From assembly GCA_963827685.1 (NCBI GenBank), contig CAWHBU010000001.1, positions 288,001 through 352,000 on the forward strand: a stretch of 64,000 nt of DNA, read 5' to 3'. This document shows positions 3,426 to 60,671 of the stretch, piece after piece (position 1 is the first letter of the stretch; every line of letters starts with the position of its first letter). This stretch comes from an uncultured delta proteobacterium. GTDB lineage: Bacteria > Desulfobacterota > BSN033 > UBA1163. The position numbers and the translations under genes were made by a program. A model generated the notes under the pieces. The model was given only the letters and a program-made list of their open reading frames with translations, made no database searches and was not told the DNA's origin.

Positions 3426-3505
3426 TTCTCCCCTCCCCTGGCGCCTGCCTGCGCGAAGCCCCGCCTTCCGGGACGAAGGCAGGGGAGAGAATTAAGGTGA
3501 GGGGG
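3426..3505. repeat. CCCTCCCC/GGGAGAG REP-like palindrome interrupted by a 40-bp CCTGCC...GGCAGG hairpin (3444-3483)
   Basis: Removing 3444-3483 restores cccctggcgggagagaattaagg, which matches the uninterrupted copy near 56970. Confidence 0.8.
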
Positions 3506-19528: not shown

Positions 19529-19612
19529 GTGTCCGTGCCTGGCGCTGAAGTGCTTCGCCTGCCTGCGCGAAGCCGCTTCGGCGAAGGCAGGGCACGCAAG
19601 CGTGTCCGTAGC
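19529..19612. repeat. Triple-nested palindromic elements
   Basis: gtgtccgtg[cctggcgctgaagtgcttcg[cctgcctgcgcgaagccgcttcggcgaaggcagg]gcacgcaagcgtg]tccgtagc. Confidence 0.7.
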
Positions 19613-25877: not shown

Positions 25878-25983
25878 GCTCCCCCTCTCCCTGTCCCTCT
25901 CCCGCCAAGGGAGAGGGACCCTAATGGGATAATCCACTTAAAAATCCCTCCCCCTTGATGGGGGAGGGAAAGGGTGGGGGTGA
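25878..25983. repeat. Inverted pair of REP-like palindromes
   Basis: ccctctcccgccaagggagaggg ... ccctcccccttgatgggggagggaaagggtggggg. Confidence 0.8.
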
Positions 25984-27160: not shown

Positions 27161-27273
27161 TTCCCCTCCACCCTCCCCTAGATCCCCTCCCGTCAAGGGA
27201 GGGGAGAGAAGAAGACTCCCTCTCCCCTTGCGGGAGAGCCTGCCTGCCGGTAGGCAGGGGTGCGGGGAGGGGG
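27161..27273. repeat. Inverted REP-like pair with a nested 20-bp CCTGCCTGCCGGTAGGCAGG (27239-27258)
   Basis: Removing the 20-mer restores ccccttgcgggagagggtgcggggaggggg. Confidence 0.8.
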
Positions 27274-35350: not shown

Positions 35351-35512
35351 GTCATTGCAAGGAGTCCCGCCATAGCGGGACGACGTGCCTGCACGCCGCA
35401 GTGCTTGAACACAGGGATTCTTAGTAGCATGAAGTTTCGGCACGCAGGCGTGGCAATCTATAATTATTTGATTTCTTTAAGAATGAGATTGCCGCGCTCC
35501 GCTCGCAAAGAC
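35351..35512. repeat. GTCATTGC...GCAATCT / AGATTGC...GCAAAGAC palindromic repeat with nested elements
   Basis: Contains tcccgccatagcgggac and the CGTG-bounded element at 35384-35452; half copy at 15060-15097. Confidence 0.75.
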
Positions 35513-35619
35513 ACCGAAAAGACTTTTTCAACAACCTGTTGCGCTTTAACATCCATTTGTTATTGATTCACCTTCGGTTCATCACTTCGTGCGAACTTTG
35601 TCATTTGACATTTGTAAAT

Positions 35620-49987: not shown

Positions 49988-51481
49988 TCAAATTTCGATG
50001 ATGCTGAATTGCTCTTGGTGGAATCCGGGCTTGCCCTTAATGACGATTTTTTTCCTCAGTTTTTTCTCCAATTCCTCCACGCCGGCCCTCTCCTCTTCGT
50101 AAAGAAGGTCGGCGATCTCCGGATTGGCTTCGACCACGATGTTATGCCCTCCCAATTCCGTGGAAGTTCTTTCGATCTCTCGGAAGATATCGTAACAGAC
50201 CGTCGTCTTCGATTTGATCAGCCCCGCTCCCTCACAATAGGGACAGGGCTCACCCAGGATCCGAGAGATGTTTTCGCGGGTTCGCTTCCGGGTCATCTCC
50301 ACCAAGCCCAATTCTGAGATTTTAAAGATATTGGTCTTCTGACGATCTTTCTTCAGGGCCTCTTCGAAAGCCTGATATACCTTTTCCCGGTCTCCCTCTC
50401 TTTCCATATCGATAAAGTCAATGATGATGATCCCTCCAATATTTCGCAATCTCAACTGGTAGGCGATCTCCTTCGCTGCTTCCAGGTTGGTTTTAAGAAT
50501 CGTATCCGCCAAATTTCTTTTCCCGACATATCTCCCTGTATTCACATCAATGGGCACCAGGGCTTCGCTCATATCGATGACGATATACCCTCCGGATTTG
50601 AGCCATACCTTACTGCCCAGGATTTTGTCAATCTCCATCTCAATCCCGTAAGCATCGAAGATCGGCTCTTTTTTCTCGTAGAGGATCATCTCATATTTTT
50701 GTTTTGGCATATAGGTGTTGATGAAGGAGAGAATATTGTCATATTCTTCTTTAGAGTTGATGATGATTCGATTGACCTGAGGGGAGAGAATATCCCGAAT
50801 GACCCGCAGCACCATGGTCAGGTCACTGTGGATCAGCGAGGGGGCCGTTGAATTTTCTTTTTTCTTCTGGATGTTATTCCAGAGATGGATGAGAAATTCC
50901 ATATCGGTTCGAATTTCATCCGCCGCTGCCCCTTCGCTGGCCGTCCGGACGATAAAACCACCGGCAGGAGGTTTTATTGATTGGATGGTTTCTCTCAGTC
51001 TCTTCCGTTCCTTTTCGTCCTTGATCCTTCTCGAAATACCGATATGATCCACAAGGGGCATGTAGACAAGATACCTGCCGGGCAACGTGGTATGGGAGGT
51101 GATTCGGGTCCCTTTCGTGCCGAGGGGTTCTTTCGAAACCTGAACCAATATCTCCTGGCCTTCGGAGAGCAGGTTTTCAATCTGTGAGGAAGGGCTGCTG
51201 AAATAAGGGGGCATTTCTTCCCCTTGAAAGCCCATTTCCTCGTAATCTTCGATCACCCCGTGGACATCCGAGACATAGAGGAAAGCAGCTTTCTCCAACC
51301 CGATATCAACAAAAGCGGCCTGCATCCCTGGCAAAACCTTCACGACTTTCCCCTTGTAGATGTTCCCCATGATGCCCCGATCCTTGGTGCGTTCGATGTA
51401 AAGTTCGGCAAGGACCCGGTCCTCCAATAAGGCAACCCTTGTCTCCTGTTGCGTTACATTAATGATCAGCTCATTCGCCAT
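49988..51481 (-). CDS. rng: Ribonuclease G (Rne/Rng family)
   Basis: GNIYKG, AAFVDIG, IDVNTG, IIIDFIDM, EMTRKR. Confidence 0.95.
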   Translation of the reverse strand: MANELIINVTQQETRVALLEDRVLAELYIERTKDRGIMGNIYKGKVVKVLPGMQAAFVDIGLEKAAFLYVSDVHGVIEDYEEMGFQGEEMPPYFSSPSSQIENLLSEGQEILVQVSKEPLGTKGTRITSHTTLPGRYLVYMPLVDHIGISRRIKDEKERKRLRETIQSIKPPAGGFIVRTASEGAAADEIRTDMEFLIHLWNNIQKKKENSTAPSLIHSDLTMVLRVIRDILSPQVNRIIINSKEEYDNILSFINTYMPKQKYEMILYEKKEPIFDAYGIEMEIDKILGSKVWLKSGGYIVIDMSEALVPIDVNTGRYVGKRNLADTILKTNLEAAKEIAYQLRLRNIGGIIIIDFIDMEREGDREKVYQAFEEALKKDRQKTNIFKISELGLVEMTRKRTRENISRILGEPCPYCEGAGLIKSKTTVCYDIFREIERTSTELGGHNIVVEANPEIADLLYEEERAGVEELEKKLRKKIVIKGKPGFHQEQFSIIEI

Positions 51482-51507
51482 AACTGCTCCTTAAAAGTAA
51501 GAACATA

Positions 51508-51628
51508 GGATTGGAATACTGGAATAGTGGAATGGTGGAATGATGGGTTTTTAAGAGGAGAGCAACCCAACCATTATCCATAAGTCTTAGAAACCAATAT
51601 TCCAATATTCCATTTTTCCATCATTCCA
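51508..51628. repeat. Octamer-period inverted array (TGGAATAC/ATATTCCA); half copy near 17600
   Basis: ttggaatactggaatagtggaatggtggaatgatggg ... ccaatattccaatattccatttttccatcattcca. Confidence 0.7.
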
Positions 51629-54095
51629 TCTTAACAACCTTCAATTGAGCAAGCGGTTCCCCGGACAAACCCAATACGGCCTCAACGATCTCGATAGGTT
51701 TTGCCGTTCTTCCCACCGCCTTTCGAAGTACCAGTTCCACTCCCCATTGAAGCTCTTCCCCTGATCTCTCCTTTTTCTCCTTAATTTCCATCTTTTCGAT
51801 CAAGGGTCGAATATCCACACTCCTTTTCTTTCCATCTCTCTCCTGATCAACGAAGAACTCTTTTTTGTCCAAAGCCATTTTGATCTTCGGGGTGGCTTCT
51901 TCTTTTGAAAGGAGATGATCCAAGGGTATCCAGTAGATAGACGGATGGGGTAAGGAGGATAGATGAAAAAAGAGCGGAACCTCCTCGGCTTCCATGATCT
52001 CAATTCCTGGTGGCAGAGTTTGATTCAGTTTCTCCATGACTTCAGGAGGAGTGATTTTCCCCTCACACTCCATATCCAAGATCTCCGTCAAACTCTCCAT
52101 CCCCACCGGAAGGGCTGTTGCAAAAATGATTCTGGGCATCGGGTGAAATCCCTCAGAAAAACAGAGAGGAAGATCAGCCCTCTTTGATGCGCGATAGAAG
52201 AGATGCACCAGTTCTAAATGGCTCAGGAATCGCAACTCTCCCACCTTTCTGAATTTCAATCGAATCTTTTTCTTCATCCCTTTCTTTCGGATATCTTTTT
52301 TTGCCATTCTTTCCAAAGTTTTAATCTCTGACGGAACACTTTCTTTAACGGTGATGCTCTTTCCGTCACAGATCCCGCACCGATGACAATTCTCTTTCAC
52401 ACAAGAAGGACTGATTTTTTCTTCGAGGCCTCTCTGATACTCCTCCCAGAGAAATTGAGCATTCATTCCTGTTTCGACAAAAGACCACGGAAGGATATCC
52501 TCGAATTTTCTCTTTCGGGTGTGGAAATCCATCTTGAGTCCCATCTTCTCAAAGGCTTCTTTCCACAGGGGATAACGGAATTGATCACTCCAGCCATCGA
52601 AGCGACATCCGAGCCGAAAGGCCTCCACTAAGACCTGGGAAAGATTTCGATCCCCCATTGAAAAAATTCCCTCCAAAGAACTGAGATGGGGATCTTGCCA
52701 CTTAAAACGGAGATGGTTCCTCCTCACCCCGTCCCTCATAAAATTAAGCTTTTCCTTTATCTCTTCCAAAGGAATTTGGGACTCCCATTGGAAAGGGGTG
52801 TGGGGCTTGGGTACGAACGTAGAAACACTGACGCTGATATTGGGATAGATTTTCTGCCTCTCTCCTAAGGAAGCAATCTGTTTGGTCAACTCAAAGATTC
52901 CCCTTAAGTCCTCCTCCTTTTCTGTTGGAAGGCCCATCATGAAATAGAGCTTGATGTTCTTCCACCCTTTTGAAAAGAGATCTGAGACACCTTGGAAAAA
53001 GACCCTTTCATCCAACTCCTTATTGATCACTCTTCGAAGACGTTCTGTTCCAGCCTCGGGCGCAATCGTAAATCCAGTCTTTCTGACCCGCTTTACCTCC
53101 TCTGCCAATTGCCCCACCACACTCTCAATCCTTAATGAGGGAAAAGAGACAGCGACTTTCTCCGATTCAAATCGGTCCATCAGATCAGAGAGAAGAGGTC
53201 CGATGGAAGAGTAGTCTCCGGCGCTAAGAGAGAGTAAAGAGAGTTCTTCGTAACCTGTCTGCTTGAGGGAGGCATTGAGAATCTCATGAATGATCTTCGG
53301 ACTTCTCTCGCGGTAAGGCCGATGGATGAACCCGGCTTCACAGAAGCGGCATCCTCTTTTGCAACCCCTTGCGATCTCAATATTGAGACGGTCATGAACC
53401 ACCTTCATGTAAGGGACGATCGGGCAGGTGGGGAAAAAGGTTTGATTAAGGTCAGAAACAATTCTTTTACGAATCCTTTGCCCCTCTGTGTGTAAACGGG
53501 GGACATAGACTCCTTCCAGTTGTGAGAGGGATTTTAAGAAATCCTCTTTCTTCGCCCCGGCCTCTTTCGATTGAAGTGCGATATCGCAGATCTCCAAGAC
53601 CACCTCTTCACCATCTCCAATGACCATGGCATCAAAAAAATCAGCGACCGGTGCTGGATTAAAGGTCAAAGGACCTCCAGCGATGATCAGCGGGGACCGG
53701 TCATCCCTGTCTGTTGAGAAGAGAGGAATATTGGAGAGGTCGAGCATATTGAGAACATTGGTAAAGCAAAGTTCATATTGGAGAGAGAAACCGACAATAT
53801 CGAATTGATTGAGGGGGATGGAGGATTCGAGGGAGGAGAGAGGAATCCTTTTTTCCCTTAAGACTTTCTCTATATCTATCCAGGGGGCAAAAGCCCTTTC
53901 GCAGGCAACTTCTATTTTTGTATTTAAAATGTGATAAAGAATCTGAATTCCGAGGTGGGACATTCCCACTTCATAGACATCTGGAAAGGCGAGACAGAAT
54001 TTTAATTTGATCTGTGAAAGGTCTTTTCTTATTGAATTGACCTCTCGGCCCAGATACCTCACCGGTTTAGAAACGAGAGAAAGAAACTCTTTCAA
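51621..54095 (-). CDS. TIGR03960 B12-binding radical SAM protein fused to TIGR03936/DUF2344
   Basis: FPDVYEVGMSHLG, RGCKRGCRFC, APEAG, FDGW; C-terminal FLSHLE...GFHPMP. Confidence 0.92.
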   Translation of the reverse strand: MKEFLSLVSKPVRYLGREVNSIRKDLSQIKLKFCLAFPDVYEVGMSHLGIQILYHILNTKIEVACERAFAPWIDIEKVLREKRIPLSSLESSIPLNQFDIVGFSLQYELCFTNVLNMLDLSNIPLFSTDRDDRSPLIIAGGPLTFNPAPVADFFDAMVIGDGEEVVLEICDIALQSKEAGAKKEDFLKSLSQLEGVYVPRLHTEGQRIRKRIVSDLNQTFFPTCPIVPYMKVVHDRLNIEIARGCKRGCRFCEAGFIHRPYRERSPKIIHEILNASLKQTGYEELSLLSLSAGDYSSIGPLLSDLMDRFESEKVAVSFPSLRIESVVGQLAEEVKRVRKTGFTIAPEAGTERLRRVINKELDERVFFQGVSDLFSKGWKNIKLYFMMGLPTEKEEDLRGIFELTKQIASLGERQKIYPNISVSVSTFVPKPHTPFQWESQIPLEEIKEKLNFMRDGVRRNHLRFKWQDPHLSSLEGIFSMGDRNLSQVLVEAFRLGCRFDGWSDQFRYPLWKEAFEKMGLKMDFHTRKRKFEDILPWSFVETGMNAQFLWEEYQRGLEEKISPSCVKENCHRCGICDGKSITVKESVPSEIKTLERMAKKDIRKKGMKKKIRLKFRKVGELRFLSHLELVHLFYRASKRADLPLCFSEGFHPMPRIIFATALPVGMESLTEILDMECEGKITPPEVMEKLNQTLPPGIEIMEAEEVPLFFHLSSLPHPSIYWIPLDHLLSKEEATPKIKMALDKKEFFVDQERDGKKRSVDIRPLIEKMEIKEKKERSGEELQWGVELVLRKAVGRTAKPIEIVEAVLGLSGEPLAQLKVVKME

Positions 54096-54329
54096 TCCAT
54101 CACCATCTGGAAGTCGATTTTTAAGAAGATTTTAAGACACTAAAGGGGGATTCCCCCTATCATCCAACCTCTTTATGTAGTTAAAAATACTATAATTTTA
54201 ACCTATTGTCAATTTTGGTCAACGAGTTCAAAGGAGGATTTGGAACCATAAGATGACGCCGGAATTAATCATTGACACAGAGAAATCAGCTTGCTACATT
54301 TTTTTAGATCACTGGTTTCCACAAAAATA

Positions 54330-54495
54330 GTGAAGCTCGCCGGCCATAGGGCGGGGCTTCACGGATAGCCAAGGCTTTCCAGCCTCGGCGAAAATGCTGG
54401 CGGGACAAGAATGTTCCGCCTATCGAAATTTGACTCACTGCATTCATCCCCGCCCCTGCCTACCGGAAGGCAGGTACAGGGCAGGACATTCTGCA
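54330..54495. mobile_element. Non-autonomous IS200/IS605-like element (two end hairpins, no ORF) with a nested 20-mer at 54455-54474
   Basis: gtgaagctcgccggccatagggcggggcttc ... attcatccccgcc[cctgcctaccggaaggcagg]tacagggcagg. Confidence 0.55.
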
Positions 54496-54519
54496 GCATT
54501 TTCGTAGAATGAAGCTCAA

Positions 54520-55422
54520 ATGAATCTGGCGAATCAATTTATTTTATCTGCCATTCAGCTTCTCCCGAAACCTCTGGTGAAGCGGTTTGCCCTGCGCTAC
54601 ATCGCTGGCGAAGAACTCGATGATGCAGTTCGTGTTGTAAAAGGTATCAATTCAAAAAAGATGATGGGAACGATGGATGTCCTCGGCGAAAATGTCTCAA
54701 CACGGGAAGAATCTCTGGCGGCTGTGAGAGAGTGTGAGGAAGTCCTTCATTCGATCAATAAAAATCATCTGGACGCAAATCTCTCTATTAAACTGACTCA
54801 ATTCGGACTTAAGATCGATGAGGAATTCTGCCATTCAAATGCAAGGCGTTTGCTTGAGATCGCCTCCGGATACAACAATTTTGTACGGATTGATATGGAA
54901 GATTCATCCACGACGAGTGCCACATTGAAATTATATGAAAGGCTGCGCTCCGAAGGGTTTGAAAACGTGGGAGTCGTCGTTCAAGCGAATATGCGGCGAA
55001 GTAAGGAGGATGTCCAAAAAGTGATCTCCATGAGGGCTAATATCAGGCTTTGTAAAGGAGCTTATATTGAACCAGATGCTATTGCCTTCAAAGGCAAAGA
55101 GGAAATCAGTCTTAATTATGTAAAGCTCTTAAAAATGCTTCTCGGCGGAAAGTGCTATGTCGGCATTGCGACCCATGACGATTTTCTGATAGACAGTGCC
55201 TATCGATACATTCAGGAGATGAATCTCCAAAAGTCCGACTACGAATTTCAGATGCTTTATGGTGTAAAGAGTAAGCTTCGCGATAAAATTGTTACGGATG
55301 GGCACCGGCTGCGTGTTTATGTTCCTTTTGGCCAATACTGGTATGCCTACTCGATTCGGCGATTTAAAGAAAATCCTCAGATTGCGTGGTACGTCTTTCA
55401 AGCAATCTTTTCTGGAGATTAA
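54520..55422 (+). CDS. Monofunctional proline dehydrogenase
   Basis: RYIAGE, SIKLTQ, RIDME, RLCKGAY, ATHD, FQMLYG, YVPFG, RRFKE. Confidence 0.93.
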   Translation: MNLANQFILSAIQLLPKPLVKRFALRYIAGEELDDAVRVVKGINSKKMMGTMDVLGENVSTREESLAAVRECEEVLHSINKNHLDANLSIKLTQFGLKIDEEFCHSNARRLLEIASGYNNFVRIDMEDSSTTSATLKLYERLRSEGFENVGVVVQANMRRSKEDVQKVISMRANIRLCKGAYIEPDAIAFKGKEEISLNYVKLLKMLLGGKCYVGIATHDDFLIDSAYRYIQEMNLQKSDYEFQMLYGVKSKLRDKIVTDGHRLRVYVPFGQYWYAYSIRRFKENPQIAWYVFQAIFSGD

Positions 55423-55427
55423 TTCTG

Positions 55428-55651
55428 TGTAACCCCTCAGTCTCGGGTGCGGTTGGATCGGGGTGGTTTCCCCTCCGAAACCTTGAAAAGCGGATCATTA
55501 GAGAGAGGGGGATCGGCGGGTGGTGCTGAAGGAGTCGTTTTAGGGGCATCTCTACCTTGGCTCATCGCTCAAATGTGCCGCTTCAAGTTTTCTCCGGAGA
55601 GACCACCCCGATCCTGGGCATAGGATCTCCGCCCATCACTGAGGGATTACA
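55428..55651. mobile_element. MITE with TIRs and a 6-bp ATTCTG target duplication
   Basis: tgtaacccctcagtctcggg ... cccatcactgagggattaca; ATTCTG at 55422-55427 and 55652-55657; internal IR gatcggggtggt/accaccccgatc. Confidence 0.75.
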
Positions 55652-55717
55652 ATTCTGCTCAGTTTATCAGTTGACATCACCTTAGAAATTGTGGTATGAA
55701 AAATTAAAAATTGATCC

Positions 55718-55910
55718 GTGTTCAGGTGGCTTGAAGCCAAAAAGGGAACCCCCGTGAGAGTCGGGGACGGCCACGCCGCTGTAATCGGGTACGAAACTTG
55801 CCAGATCCACTATCCTTCGAGACTTCGGCATGAGCTCAGTCGAATGCCAAGCTTAGGATGGGAAGGGGCAAGAAGTAGGACGATCCGTAAGCCAGAAAAC
55901 CTGCCTGAAT
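55718..55910 (+). ncRNA. Cobalamin riboswitch
   Basis: AAAAGGGAA, CCGCTGTAA, CCACT...GGGAAGG, AAGCCAGAAAACCTGCC B12-box; upstream of tonB-btuFCD. Confidence 0.92.
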
Positions 55911-55961
55911 GCGCTTCACAATAGGTCTTCGGTGGAGGACTGTGAAGGGTGAGGTAGAAAC

Positions 55962-55995
55962 AAACCCAGTCTTTCATGCAAAGGCTGGGTTTTTT
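55962..55995 (+). terminator. Intrinsic terminator (riboswitch expression platform)
   Basis: aaacccagtcttt-catgc-aaaggctgggttttt. Confidence 0.75.
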
Positions 55996-56010
55996 ATTGG
56001 AATTTTGAAT

Positions 56011-56916
56011 ATGACTGGAAATGCAACTCTGAAGATCGCTGCTTCTATCTCGTTGGGTATCCATCTCTTATTTATCGGGATCGCCTCAAGTTTATTCCAA
56101 AACCCCAAGATCCTTCAAATGGACACGCGTTATGTTAAGGTTACTCTTCTACCCTTGGTGACCGAGGAGAAACCCGGTGCCAAGATTATTCTTCCTATTC
56201 CCCTGAAAGTTGGAAATCAAGATCCCGGGGAACCCGTATTTGACCGCAAGGGGCTAAACCAGAATCCCCTTTCCCCTTCCAAATCTATGGCAAAAAATAT
56301 TCCTCTCGAAGAACCGAGAACATTTCCCCAGCAACGAGAAGAGGAGAGAGTATTAAAAGAACCCATTAGCGTTGCCATGGCTGTGGGACCGCTTTCTGAT
56401 GCATACCTTAACAAGGGGGCGGATGCGGTTTCTTCTAAAGAGGCCGCTACCAATGGGGAGAATCTTTCCGTGTCTTTACCCGCTTTCCGCTCCGGAGAAT
56501 TCGATGGGGGTACTTTTTCATACAGTAGCTTTGGAGATGGAAAGGGGGCAGGAACCGGGTCTGGGAATGGAAGCTCCAGTAAAGGAGGTTCTGGAAAAGG
56601 GGAAGGAATTTTTGGGAAAATTTTATCCTCCCGCAGAGGGGGTAATGGGACTCGGCCCGGATATGCTGAGAATCCGAAACCTATCTATCCGCAGGAAGCC
56701 AGGGAAAAGGGATATGAAGGGGAAGTGGTCTTGTGGGTGGAAGTCCTTATCAGTGGGCAGGTAGGGCAGATTGAAATAAAGAAGTCATCCGGTTATGAGT
56801 TGCTCGATCGCTCCGCCCTCACTGCAGTGAAACAGTGGAGATTCATTCCCGCAAAGAAGGATGAGGTTCCAATCCCTCTTTGGGTAAACATTCCTGTCAA
56901 GTTTCAACTCCAATGA
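56011..56916 (+). CDS. tonB: Energy transducer TonB
   Basis: N-terminal S-x6-H TM anchor; PIYPQEAR..GYEG.V, SSGY..LD..A..AV..WRFIPA. Confidence 0.9.
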   Translation: MTGNATLKIAASISLGIHLLFIGIASSLFQNPKILQMDTRYVKVTLLPLVTEEKPGAKIILPIPLKVGNQDPGEPVFDRKGLNQNPLSPSKSMAKNIPLEEPRTFPQQREEERVLKEPISVAMAVGPLSDAYLNKGADAVSSKEAATNGENLSVSLPAFRSGEFDGGTFSYSSFGDGKGAGTGSGNGSSSKGGSGKGEGIFGKILSSRRGGNGTRPGYAENPKPIYPQEAREKGYEGEVVLWVEVLISGQVGQIEIKKSSGYELLDRSALTAVKQWRFIPAKKDEVPIPLWVNIPVKFQLQ

Positions 56917-57992
56917 TCTATTCATCAAAGAAAATAGGCATTAAAGACGGAAAGCTTAAGAACCTCCCCTCCCCTGGCGGGAGGGGATTAAGGGAAGGGA
57001 GAAGGAATAGGTGGGATGTCACCCTCACCCCAGCCCTCTCCCGCTTGCGGGCCGAACCCTTCAGCGGGCAGGCCCGTCAAGGGAGAGGGGAAAAGAAATT
57101 CTTTTTGGTGCTTTTGTTGTTCACCTTCATTTTGGCATCTAGTTCCCATTCCGCCGACTTAAATGTTAAAGATGAAGTAGGAAGAGAAGTGGCCTTCCCT
57201 TTTCCTCCAAAAAGGATTGTTTCCTTGGCTCCCAATATCACCGAAATCCTTTTCAGCCTTGGACTCGATGAAGAGATCGTGGGGGTCTCCATTCACTGTA
57301 ATTTTCCTGCAAAGGCCAAGAGCAAAGTTCGAGTAGGAAGCTATATCAGTCTCGATTTCGAAAAGATCGCCTCCCTCAACCCTGATTTGATCATTGCCAC
57401 GGCAGCTGGAAATACCCGGGACATGGTGGATCGCTTAGGGAAATTGGGGTTTCAGACTTATGTCATCTATCCAAAGAACTTTAATGATATCCTCCAAAGC
57501 ATCGCTCATATCAGTCAGGTCGTGAACCGGGAAAAAGAGGCGAGGGTGATCATCGAGGGAATGAGAAAGAGAAGCCAGAGAATAGTTGAACTCACAAACG
57601 GCCTTCCACGACCTAAGGTTTTTATCCAAATCGGAGATGCCCCCATTGTGACGGTAGGAAAAGGGAGTTTTGCAGATGACCTTATCCGGCTTGCCGGGGG
57701 TGAAAATATTGCAGGGAAAGAGGAAGAGGTATATCCTCGATTTGGAATGGAGGAAATTTTAAAAAGATCTCCAGAGGTGATCGTCATCAGTTCCATGAAT
57801 CCAAGAGGGGATTATCAGAGGATTATTCAGGAATGGACTCGTTGGAAGAGCATCCCAGCCGTAAAGAATGGCCGCATTCACCTCATTGACTCAGACTTGC
57901 TCGATCGGCCATCACCGCGCATCATCGACGGATTGGAGGAGCTCGCAAGAGTTCTCCATCCTGGAAAATTTAGAAGAACAGTGCAAAATTAG
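56913..57992 (+). CDS. btuF: Cobalamin ABC transporter substrate-binding protein
   Basis: RIVSLAPNITEILF.LG, PDL, RPSPR; ATG at 56913 overlaps the tonB stop (start uncertain). Confidence 0.88.
   Translation: MIYSSKKIGIKDGKLKNLPSPGGRGLREGRRNRWDVTLTPALSRLRAEPFSGQARQGRGEKKFFLVLLLFTFILASSSHSADLNVKDEVGREVAFPFPPKRIVSLAPNITEILFSLGLDEEIVGVSIHCNFPAKAKSKVRVGSYISLDFEKIASLNPDLIIATAAGNTRDMVDRLGKLGFQTYVIYPKNFNDILQSIAHISQVVNREKEARVIIEGMRKRSQRIVELTNGLPRPKVFIQIGDAPIVTVGKGSFADDLIRLAGGENIAGKEEEVYPRFGMEEILKRSPEVIVISSMNPRGDYQRIIQEWTRWKSIPAVKNGRIHLIDSDLLDRPSPRIIDGLEELARVLHPGKFRRTVQN
56961..57090. repeat. REP-like doublet within the btuF 5' frame, with a nested 33-bp element (57044-57076)
   Basis: cctcccctggcgggagggg ... 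caccctcaccccagccctctCCCG[...CCCG]tcaagggagagggg. Confidence 0.8.
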
Positions 57993-58054
57993 CATTGAAA
58001 AACTATCAGTGATCATTGTTAATTGATAATTTTTCGTTTTCCAATGAGATTCAG

Positions 58055-59086
58055 ATGAAGACTGTTACTCTAAAAAGAGTCCTGACCATTTCAATTCTCC
58101 TCAGCCTCCTCCTCATCTTGATTATCCTCATGTCCGTCACCATGGGAAGCGTAAAGATTCCACCCCTTCGTTCCATCCGTATTCTCTTCCAGTGCATTCT
58201 GGGTCTGAGGGGAGCTGGGAGCGAGACGGAGCGGACGATCATTCTTTCTCTCAGACTTCCCCGAGCTATTTTGGCAGGTCTCGTGGGAGCAGGTCTTTCT
58301 GTTTCAGGGGCTACGTTCCAGGCTCTCCTGAAAAATCCTCTGGCCGATCCTTATATTCTCGGAGTCTCCAGTGGTGCAGCCGTAGGCGCGATTATTGCCA
58401 TTCTCTTGGGGCTCAGCACCTTTTCCTTTGGCCTCCCTCTGGCTTCCTTCTTGGGAGCGCTCCTGACCATCCTCGTTGTCTTCTATTTCGGAAGACAGGA
58501 TGGAAGGATTCATCCGAATACGCTTTTGTTGGCGGGGGTCATCATCGGTTCTTTTCTCTCAGCCCTCATCATGTTTTTCATCTCTGTCTCCCAAAGAGAA
58601 GAACTTCATACGATCATCTTCTGGTTGATGGGAGACTTCAGTTTTTCCAACGCTCGGGCGATTCTAATCATCTTTCCTTATATTCTATTGGGCGTCTTCT
58701 TTCTTTATCTCCGCTCTCGTCATTTGAACCTCATCCTTTCCGGGGAAGAGAACGCTGTCCAGTTGGGGGTGGATGTGGAGAGGTTGAAACTGGTTTCCTA
58801 TCTTTCTGCTTCTTTGATCACTGCAGCATCGGTCTCCGTATGCGGTCTGATCGGTTTCGTGGGCCTGATCATCCCACATTCTGTTCGGCTGATCTTTGGC
58901 CCTGACCATCGTCTCCTCATCCCTTCCACAGCACTGCTTGGGGCTTCGTTTCTCATTGCTTCCGATACCTTTGCAAGAACCTTGCTCGCTCCTGTTGAAT
59001 TGCCCGTGGGCGTGATCACGGCCGCCTTTGGAGGTCCTTTCTTTATCTACCTTCTAAGGACGAGAAAGGCGATCAAAACATTATGA
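58055..59086 (+). CDS. btuC: Cobalamin/iron-chelate ABC permease
   Basis: RLPR, NPLADPYILGVSSGA, GFVGLIIPH, ELPVG. Confidence 0.9.
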   Translation: MKTVTLKRVLTISILLSLLLILIILMSVTMGSVKIPPLRSIRILFQCILGLRGAGSETERTIILSLRLPRAILAGLVGAGLSVSGATFQALLKNPLADPYILGVSSGAAVGAIIAILLGLSTFSFGLPLASFLGALLTILVVFYFGRQDGRIHPNTLLLAGVIIGSFLSALIMFFISVSQREELHTIIFWLMGDFSFSNARAILIIFPYILLGVFFLYLRSRHLNLILSGEENAVQLGVDVERLKLVSYLSASLITAASVSVCGLIGFVGLIIPHSVRLIFGPDHRLLIPSTALLGASFLIASDTFARTLLAPVELPVGVITAAFGGPFFIYLLRTRKAIKTL

Positions 59087-59880
59087 TTGAAGTCAATTCC
59101 ATCTCCTTCCGTTATCATGAAGATTGGGTGCTCCAGGATGTCTCTTTTCAACTGGAGAGGGGAGAGTTCGTTGGAGTGATCGGACCCAATGGATCAGGGA
59201 AGACGACACTCCTGAAGATCCTCTATCGTCTTCTTATACCCCAGAAGGGAGAGATTCTCTTTGAACTTGTCCCCATGAAGAGGATGGATCGAGCTGATAT
59301 CGCCAAAAGGATTGCTGTGGTGGCACAAGAGGCTCAACTTCTCTTTCCTTTCAGTGTGTTTGAAACGGTCCTGATGGGAAGATCTCCTTATCTTGGGCAT
59401 TTAATGTTTGAAAGCGAAAAGGATTTGGAAATTGCGAAAAAAGCGATGGGGTGGACGAAGATCCTTCCGTTTTCTGAAAGGCCCATGGACGAACTCTCCG
59501 GCGGAGAAAGGAAGAGGGTCTTCATCGCCAGGGCTTTGGCTCAGGAACCGGAGGTTATTCTTCTGGATGAACCCACTGCCAACTTAGACATCCAGCACCA
59601 GATCGATTTTCTCGATCTCATCCTCACTCTCAACCGGGAGAGAGGGTTGACCATTATCATGGCCTCTCACGATATGAACATTGCCTCTGAATTTTGTGAT
59701 CGGCTTATTCTTCTTCGGGAAGGAAGGATTTATAAAATGGGGACCCCTGAGGAGGTCATCACCCAGGAGAATATTGAATTGGTATATGGTTGCGAGGCAT
59801 GGATAGACCAAAATCCTGTCTCAGGAATGCCCCGGATCAGTCTCATAAAAAAGGGGGGATTAACTAAGAGGTTACATTGA
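59083..59880 (+). CDS. btuD: Cobalamin/iron-chelate ABC ATPase
   Basis: GPNGSGKTT, LSGGE, LDEPT, SHD. Confidence 0.88.
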   Translation: MIEVNSISFRYHEDWVLQDVSFQLERGEFVGVIGPNGSGKTTLLKILYRLLIPQKGEILFELVPMKRMDRADIAKRIAVVAQEAQLLFPFSVFETVLMGRSPYLGHLMFESEKDLEIAKKAMGWTKILPFSERPMDELSGGERKRVFIARALAQEPEVILLDEPTANLDIQHQIDFLDLILTLNRERGLTIIMASHDMNIASEFCDRLILLREGRIYKMGTPEEVITQENIELVYGCEAWIDQNPVSGMPRISLIKKGGLTKRLH

Positions 59881-60070
59881 AAAGATAGTTGAATGTGCTT
59901 CCAAACCTTTACCAAGCGGTTCTTTACATTGTTTTATGGGTAACATACAATGTCGCCTGAAGTGACGTTTGGAATGTGTCTGGAAATGAAGCAGAGAAAC
60001 GTTCAGCGGTTCCGCTGTAAAGCTTTGGCGATAAATCGCCCGGAGCTGTAATTGTCTTTTTTATAAAAAA

Positions 60071-60603
60071 TACCTGTTGAATACCGCCTAGCTCTGCTGG
60101 GCGGATGAAAACAGGTTCGCGAAGCGATAAGACATGGTATAAGTACTGCATGAGCTCGATAAAAAGAACAAGCCATGCGGTCTACGATTTGAAATATCAT
60201 ATGGTATGGGTTCCCAAATATCGGAAGATGATATTGGGAGGTGAGTTGGCAAAAAGGCTTAAGATGAGTTTTGAGCAAATATCGGAGAGGTACGAGTTTG
60301 AGATAGATACGATGGAGGTAAAGGATGATCATGTTCATTTATTTTTGTCTGCCCCTCCTCGGTATTGTCCGGCAGAGATTGTGCAGATCATAAAGAGTAT
60401 CTCGGCGAAAATGGTGTTCAAGCAGTTTCCAGAGGTGAAGAAAGAGCTTTGGGGTGGAGAGTTTTGGAGTGATGGGTATTTTGTTCGGTCTGTTGGAGAC
60501 AAAGTTACCTCTGAAGTCATACGTCGCTATATAAAGTATCAGCAACAGGAGCAATTAAGTTTTGAATTTTAATGCCCCGCAGCTCTGCTGCGGGGTTCTT
60601 TAC
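60071..60603 (+). mobile_element. IS200-type insertion sequence (tnpA only); boundaries approximate
   Basis: Subterminal hairpins ccgcctag-ctctg-ctgggcgg (60084-60104) and ccccgcag-ctctg-ctgcgggg (60575-60595) flank tnpA. Confidence 0.85.
60150..60572 (+). CDS. tnpA: IS200/IS605-family Y1 HUH transposase
   Basis: YHMVWVPKYR, DHVHL (HUH), LWGGEFWSDGYF, YIKYQ. Confidence 0.95.
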   Translation: MSSIKRTSHAVYDLKYHMVWVPKYRKMILGGELAKRLKMSFEQISERYEFEIDTMEVKDDHVHLFLSAPPRYCPAEIVQIIKSISAKMVFKQFPEVKKELWGGEFWSDGYFVRSVGDKVTSEVIRRYIKYQQQEQLSFEF

Positions 60604-60671
60604 TTTTTTGCCGGCTCAGCACACCCAACTATCTTTTGGAATGTCTTTTACGCAAATAGGGAGTTAAGAGG

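Follow-up and report, generated by a model that had tools for sequence, protein, structure and literature searches.

A REP-like family of mini-elements with near-complementary flanking and inner tetranucleotides in the hairpin repeats of an uncultured delta proteobacterium

Described relatives and the three sites of the window

The spread of REPs and other very small repeats is still poorly understood, and IS110/IS1111 elements often target REP hairpins. The small dispersed repeats (SDRs) of Nostoc, reportedly described by Elhai et al. in 2008, are said to be about 21-27 nt long, mobile-looking and nested in other repeats; we know of no enzyme for them. IS608 (PMC3201880) and one REPtron (PMC8266576) have been shown to choose their cleavage sites by base pairing. 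In IS608, guide tetranucleotides 5′ of each hairpin foot pair with the cleavage or target tetranucleotide; the element inserts 3′ of the target and leaves a single copy behind on excision (PMC3201880), and the target can be reprogrammed (PMC5934647). In the Marinomonas REPtron, the positions cleaved to either side of the stem-loop are selected by a tetranucleotide beside a 5-bp palindrome (PMC8266576). The tags of REPs are GTAG or CGTC (PMC3733652).

The window analyzed here, meaning the whole stretch of 64,000 nucleotides (C1:288001-352000 of genome G000, which comprises 5.2 Mb in 14 contigs), carries three copies of a mini-element with the layout T-L1-X-L2-centre-L3-X-L4-T (Table 1). The linkers L1/L4 (CCTG/CAGG) and L2/L3 (CCGAA/TTCGG) are palindromic partners, whereas the tetranucleotides T and X are not; T is repeated in direct orientation, and so is X. 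On re-reading, all three sites have the layout given in the initial annotation, and the CGTG and CCCG forms share it. However, the unpaired 4x4 internal loop proposed there was not confirmed: T and X at the three sites all start with C and end with G, so that in the fold-back form only the two middle bases of the facing tetranucleotides mismatch, giving 2x2 tandem mismatches (G.T/T.G and A.C/C.A, or C.C and G.G).

Table 1. Mini-elements and host repeats at the three sites, in window coordinates
Feature	Position	Strand	Sequence or arrangement
b-type mini-element with both flanking CGTG	35384..35452	.	CGTG CCTG CACG CCGCA (35 nt) TTCGG CACG CAGG CGTG
b-type element proper	35388-35448		X = CACG on both sides, centre 35 nt
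Host repeat unit A (CATTGC.AG...GCAATC)	35353..35458	+	b-type insert at its single CGTG
CCCG-type mini-element with both flanking CCCG	57040..57076	.	CCCG CTTG CGGG CCGAA CCC TTCAG CGGG CAGG CCCG; X = CGGG on both sides, centre CCC
Host hairpin repeat B (CCCTCTCCC loop GGGAGAGGG)	57034..57089	+	CCCG-type insert inside its loop
Degenerate a/b-type copy with CGTG flanks	19534..19604	.	CGTGTCC-like tandem context, interrupted by c-type insert; left X one base short
34-bp c-type element (CCTGCCTGCGCGAAGCCGCTTCGGCGAAGGCAGG)	19558..19591	.	Nested between G and G, without 4-bp flanking repeat

Like REPs and REPINs with their RAYTs, the mini-elements are short imperfect palindromes that are non-autonomous, occur in many copies and lie between genes; as in the REPtron (PMC8266576), a conserved tetranucleotide stands beside a small stem, and RAYT-like genes are present in the genome. 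Unlike the REPs and REPtron described, the mini-elements have no GTAG or CGTC tag, the foot words being CACG, CGCG or CCCG on both sides, and the word at both feet is usually complementary to the full tetranucleotide on both flanks. Moreover, no RAYT gene in this genome is flanked by mini-elements, which insert into the tips of genuine GTAG REPs and are separate from them. A likeness to IS200/IS605 and its gene-less derivatives would lie in features of IS608, namely the target tetranucleotide paired with a guide tetranucleotide at the 5′ foot of a hairpin, insertion 3′ of that target and the single copy left on excision. In contrast to the two different ends of such elements, a mini-element is one tiny hairpin with the same word at both junctions; the ends of the resident IS200s are unrelated to it, and its a-type, described below, breaks Watson-Crick guide logic. 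The mini-elements therefore fall outside the GTAG/CGTC REP families, and they do not derive from the resident IS200s.

The remaining comparisons are looser. The Nostoc SDRs, likened here by description only, are also very small repeats nested in other repeats, in a different phylum. With terminal inverted repeats set between short direct repeats, the elements recall DDE-type MITEs with fixed-length target duplications, but a mini-element may total only 30 bp, sits in hairpin loops, has flanks complementary to an internal word, and has no parent IS among the unpaired half-sites screened in this genome (see below). IS110/IS1111 elements likewise read their target by nucleic-acid pairing, yet they depend on two internal components, a DEDD recombinase gene and a long structured RNA, neither of which fits into 30-75 bp; the analogy to IS110 bridge RNAs suggested initially therefore fails, because a 30-bp element cannot hold a bridge RNA.

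The mini-element family and its insertion sites

In the genome, a relaxed search returned 51 loci, and about 45 of these are clear members of the mini-element family. A generic pattern gave 27 matches per strand and a stricter one 22 matches, against none for the same patterns read backwards. The elements measure 30-75 bp and have no ORF; as imperfect palindromes scattered between genes at about 45 loci of G000, they follow the REP type of organization. The b-type reads CGTG CCTG CACG CCGAA GTGC...(G/A)CGT T(T/A/C)CGG CACG CAGG CGTG, its centre varying between 6 and 45 nt in length, and the a-type reads CGTG CCTG CGCG CTGAA GCGC TACGG CGCG CAAG CGTG (38 bp including flanks); the two often adjoin with one CGTG in common. 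The CCCG form is present in G000 as the single copy at window position 57040, and a d-type has the sequence CAGG CCTG CCTG CCGAA GGGCAG TACGG CCCG CAGG CAGG. Taken together, 116 elements from G000 and from 81 loci of relatives fall into 67 clusters of flanking context; T is the same on both sides in 47 of these, and CGTG is the target in many independent contexts, comprising 21 b-type and 10 a-type clusters.

Related c-type elements are inserted between two G with no 4-bp repeat and often occupy the loop of the CCCTCTCCC hairpin. Genome-wide, they occur in a 20-bp form (CCTGCCTGCCGGTAGGCAGG) at about 64 loci and in the 34-bp form at about 48 loci. Within the window, c-type mini-palindromes lie at 3444-3483, 19558-19591, 27239-27258 and 54455-54474. 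The CCCTCTCCC hairpin repeat is also found at 25883-25917 with an internal partial duplication, reading CCCTCTCCC TGT CCCTCTCCC GCCAA GGGAGAGGG.

Elements were detected in 24 of 41 relatives and in 33 of the 55 genomes of the taxonomic family, which includes a record titled Deltaproteobacteria bacterium RBG_16_49_23, while the reversed control pattern was absent everywhere. The CCCG-type and d-type also occur in genome records of Bacteroidota and Dehalococcoidia, and a-type copies in many metagenome contigs. Metagenome runs from 13 studies of sediment, wetland and peat contain DNA nearly identical to the window region. The metagenome loci listed contained only 9 extra elements, all of the usual types, and a phylum-wide scan of 401 genomes for CYNG-type copies yielded only one further family member. 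A scan of genome records, used as a rough control, returned at least 146 matches, mostly by chance and in GC-rich genomes; among the 146 listed, the same flank on both sides was found only in four members of the family. The CCCG copy of relative G006 occupies a non-orthologous place but lies inside the same host repeat as the window copy, and so does not represent an event independent of it. No Rfam family matched at the elements, and no published description of the family was found in the literature searched, although any junction data for Nostoc SDRs (Elhai 2008) may bear on its novelty. In kind, the elements belong with REPs and mini-MITEs.

Intact copies were found for two of the host repeats. 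Host repeat A occurs uninterrupted as CATTGCGAG...GACGTGGCAATC and in other intact copies such as CATTGCGAGGAGTCCCGCTTTGGCGGGACGACGTGGCAATC, with one CGTG; the empty form, for example CATTGCGAGGAGCGAAGCGACGTGGCAATC, also has a single CGTG. Host hairpin B is empty at C2:520767, where it reads CCCTCTCCC GTCAA GGGAGAGGG with a single CCCG. These paralogous copies bear out, for host repeats A and B, the earlier statement that removal of the element with one T restores the host repeat, the empty paralogous sites carrying a single T. They also uphold the description of the element as a non-autonomous mini-insertion. We consider it very likely that the family is a mobile mini-element with tetranucleotide specificity.

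The target word, located within the loop of another hairpin repeat or next to it, ends up on both sides of the insert; it is CGTG for the a- and b-types and CGGG or CAGG for the CCCG- and d-types. Other contexts of insertion are host repeat C, CGTGTCC-like tandem repeats, the loops of ATTCCCG...CGGGAAT hairpins, the tips of genuine GTAG REPs (b-type and c-type) and hairpin family D (…GAAGCCTT GGCG TAGG…). In host hairpin D (CCCACC...GGTGGG; metagenome loci L244-L353), the compensating stem variants CCCTCC/GGAGGG and CCCGCC/GGCGGG hold the same a-type insert, and among the matches listed the right flank is GGCG at 11 or more loci and TGCG, TACG or TGCA at 13 or more.

After insertion, composites spread as units. 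The window b-type composite has two near-identical copies, at C2:872574-872682 (95% identity) and C3:791033-791110 (97%), and a 259-bp composite consists of two inverted host-A units with the outer inverted repeats GGTTGAAAAAG.../...CTTTTTCAAC. The latter, at window 35358-35616, is absent from the orthologous place of relative G009. The search for empty orthologous sites suggested initially gave a negative result: no empty allele lacking just the mini-element turned up, whether at orthologous places in the genus relatives or among the contigs of four metagenome runs, the intergenic stretches with composites not being conserved in the genus and only whole composites differing. Contigs of the four runs were compared with window 50000-60000, contig breaks at an element being uninformative as to empty alleles, and in run X2 one contig spans an unchanged CCCG copy. 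Another, from run X4, skips 56916-57170, that is, the whole intergenic repeat block including the CCCG copy. This block (56917-57169) is not conserved in the genus, whereas the genes on either side of it are.

Complementarity of the flanking and inner words

In every class seen, T differs from the reverse complement of X by no more than one transition. The match is perfect at both ends in the b-type (T = CGTG, X = CACG; 21 clusters) and in CCCG-type copies with T = CGGG and X = CCCG, which occupy two contexts (window/G006 and L075 = L357) among the matches listed. It is also perfect at the left end of the d-type (CAGG with XL = CCTG; at least 5 contexts) and at the right end of the host-D copies (GGCG with XR = CGCC; at least 11 loci) and of one further context (TGCG with XR = CGCA; at least 3 loci). 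b-type variants with CATG or TGTG opposite CACG are one transition off, and the foot tetranucleotide makes three of four pairs with the flank in the 10 a-type clusters and in CCCG-type copies at CAGG. A random tetranucleotide would fall within one transition in 5 of 256 cases, or in 3 of 16 given C..G ends; for two independent classes, the chance is roughly 0.0004 to 0.035. The complementarity between the flanking and inner words thus hints at self-guided targeting.

Strict self-programming is nevertheless contradicted by the a-type. Its X is CGCG, yet it is flanked by CGTG/CACG in 10 of 10 clusters and never lies between two CGCG, although CGCG accounts for about 26% of all occurrences of these three words in the genome (P about 0.05 for 0 of 10). 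Among the matches listed, the further a-type contexts from metagenomes likewise have no CGCG on both sides. Of the initial view that the element is self-guided and that X changes with T, the near-complementarity in every class holds, with perfect pairs in the window CCCG copy and the CGTG b-type; free covariation does not, since the a-type CGCG always sits at CGTG/CACG.

The corollary that a changed X goes with a changed target was likewise sustained only in part. We scanned the metagenomes for a-type copies in which the last base of XR is not G (120 loci or more). Among the matches listed, the flank followed the changed XR in one context each for CGCC (host D) and CGCA, whereas the usual CGTG/CACG-like flank was kept in roughly 16 or more other CGCA contexts and in 4 or more other CGCC contexts. 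Since most copies with a variant X keep the usual flank, most variant X reflect decay after insertion, and the matching cases are single events, which could be explained by chance or by quasi-palindrome correction after insertion. Similarly, the CCCG-type copies listed have CAGG in three contexts (L358, L359 and L366) and CGGG in two, and T stays CAGG where XL is CCTG (d-type) or CCCG (CCCG-type), the centre compensating (GGGCAG versus GGGCGG).

The centre of the element also matches X, in the combinations CACG-GTGC, CGCG-GCGC, CCCG-GGGC and CGGG-CCC. This match is present at 90 of 136 ends, compared to a permutation mean of 29 and maximum of 46, though these copies are related. X covaries more strictly with the centre than with T, indicating that the firm covariation lies inside the element and that T is largely a lineage trait. 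DNA folds revealed several competing pairings; in the composite, XL pairs with the right-hand T and the centre with XR. The composite folds are more stable than shuffled sequences (z about -3), while the elements alone are not (z -0.3 to -0.6).

Two other origins of the layout were considered and rejected. If X were templated from the target at insertion, the a-type would not keep CGCG at CGTG sites, as it does in many contexts. An origin by nested insertion, with an inner element entering a CCTG-X-CAGG shell at X, meets the rarity of shell-only forms, of which there were three matches; the only one of the three in a host repeat (C3:1107094) looks like a deletion between the two X.

Candidate enzymes and routes of movement

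The genome has 25 hits to Y1 HUH enzymes (PF01797), comprising 18 copies of a 545-bp IS200, 3 of a second IS200 and 4 single-copy RAYT-like genes. The RAYT-like genes lie at C2:956008-956478, C4:98138-99001, C6:19600-20600 and C6:428147-428668. The end hairpins of the 545-bp IS200 are CCGCCCAGCTCTGCTGGGCGG and CCCCGCAGCTCTGCTGCGGGG, and those of both resident IS200 types are unrelated to the mini-elements. One of its 18 near-identical copies lies in the window at 60060-60604 (tnpA match 60180-60542). There was no a-, b- or c-type motif within 2.5 kb of any of the four RAYT-like genes, no TnpB was found in the genome, and seven IS110-type hits were recorded. One RAYT-like gene (C6:428147-428668) has a GTAG-tagged REP doublet on both sides, with about 19-25 other copies, and is a classical REPtron.

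RAYT-like hits (E at most 1e-10) were present in 29 of the 33 element-bearing genomes of the family versus 12 of the 22 without the element (Fisher p = 0.01, the genomes being kin and hence not independent); the four element-bearing genomes without such a hit are 69-87% complete. As kin are not independent and repeat-rich genomes may hold both, this association is a weak hint. No specific RAYT orthologue tracked the elements, close orthologues of two of the RAYT-like genes occurring in only 4 genomes each, and a rough screen of 147 unpaired half-sites in G000 gave nothing convincing as an autonomous relative or parent IS. Thus, of the enzyme acting in trans that the initial annotation had postulated, candidates are present as Y1 HUH genes, but none is tied to the elements; and the correlation with HUH, RAYT and IS110 genes that it recommended amounts to the weak RAYT association, with no RAYT gene of this genome flanked by elements.

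The mini-element is best read as REP-like and non-autonomous, with tetranucleotide-specific insertion that may be driven by an HUH enzyme on single-stranded DNA, and pairing of flank and foot in such a reaction is the best available mechanism, one that we favor tentatively. A Y1 HUH enzyme similar to RAYT/TnpA-REP would act in trans, with hairpin-dependent cleavage and joining of single strands. X, which abuts the 5-bp stem (CCGAA/TTCGG) and has T beyond it on both sides, would serve at the foot of the small central hairpin like the guide tetranucleotide of IS608 and REPs, and would pair with the cleavage or target word T. T on both sides could reflect a duplication as well as an element with a 3′ word identical to the target; in the proposed reaction the element's own 3′ word would be the target, giving T on both sides without duplication. 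The near strand symmetry would put such a word at the 5′ foot of each strand, and hence produce the odd order T..rc(T)..rc(T)..T. The pairing would tolerate one transition (G.T-type) and would not be the sole determinant of the target, so that the element would not be freely reprogrammable. The complete picture, in which a strand-symmetric REP-like mini-element with its own targeting word owes its movement to a RAYT-like HUH enzyme acting in trans and nests hairpins across phyla, is possible but doubtful. If it were true, a point change would redirect the element, CGCG to CGCC leading to GGCG sites, CGCG to CGCA to TGCG sites, and CACG to the CCCG class to CGGG sites; and if self-programming were real, this would be the smallest known self-programmed mobile DNA.

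Several features could also be expected of a minimal MITE, consisting of little more than two abutted terminal inverted repeats and mobilized by a DDE transposase. T would then be a genuine target-site duplication of 4 bp, made at a preferred word, and its complementarity to X would be incidental. The identity of T on both sides in 47 of 67 clusters is consistent with this, equally with the HUH reaction, and the sharing of CGTG by the a- and b-types despite their different X, as well as the retention of the usual T by variant-X copies, argue for it. We nonetheless regard it as unlikely: no full-length element with matching termini emerged from a rough look at the 147 unpaired half-sites, the complementarity recurs in two separate classes (CGTG/CACG; CGGG/CCCG and CAGG/CCTG), the insertion sites are hairpin loops, and the related c-type has no duplication.

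Somewhat less likely again is an enzyme-independent template switch between hairpin tips, in which the nascent strand, during replication, finds microhomology in the four nucleotides of T and carries what lies between two T from a donor hairpin into another T-bearing hairpin. The flanking word would then be inherited with the element and not read by X, as suggested by the behavior of T as a lineage trait independent of X (a-type at CGTG, CCCG-type at CAGG). Hybrid flanks such as GGTG...GGCG and TGTG...CGTG, the location of all sites within hairpin-forming repeats and the one copy with a deletion between two X (C3:1107094) point in the same direction. However, four nucleotides are very short for such specificity, near-identical cores occur in different phyla, and the X-T complementarity is left unexplained.

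The direct T repeats around the element and the single T at empty sites would also arise by site-specific recombination, if T were the 4-bp crossover core shared by the target and a small circular or hairpin intermediate. The inferred junction, CAGG-T-CCTG, has CCTG/CAGG as perfect inverted arms around T, and the seven IS110-type genes could be invoked. This route appears improbable, given that no recombinase is linked to the elements, that 30 bp leave no room for a bridge RNA or a gene, and that T differs by single bases between copies. That the elements are not mobile at all, but a structured RNA or DNA motif under selection whose complementarity amounts to local 4-bp hairpins, is very improbable, since the strong internal pairing of X with the centre and the stability of the composite folds (z about -3) stand against filled and empty paralogous repeat copies, nesting and tandem arrangement with one T in common, the lack of an Rfam match and elements that alone fold no better than shuffles (z -0.3 to -0.6).

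With elements as short as 30 bp, nearly strand-symmetric, present in several phyla and complementary between flank and foot over four nucleotides, the family could provide a natural series for testing 4-nt pairing as the setter of the target in non-autonomous elements, and would also show how nested hairpin repeats grow. Should the pairing be irrelevant, the family would still clearly illustrate insertion into hairpin loops with specificity for a tetranucleotide, and would still give rise to spurious ORFs and broken assemblies in sediment metagenomes. Elsewhere in the window, a cobalamin riboswitch (Rfam RF00174, 93.8 bits) was found at 55707-55922 on the plus strand, upstream of a 335-aa ORF (55909-56916).
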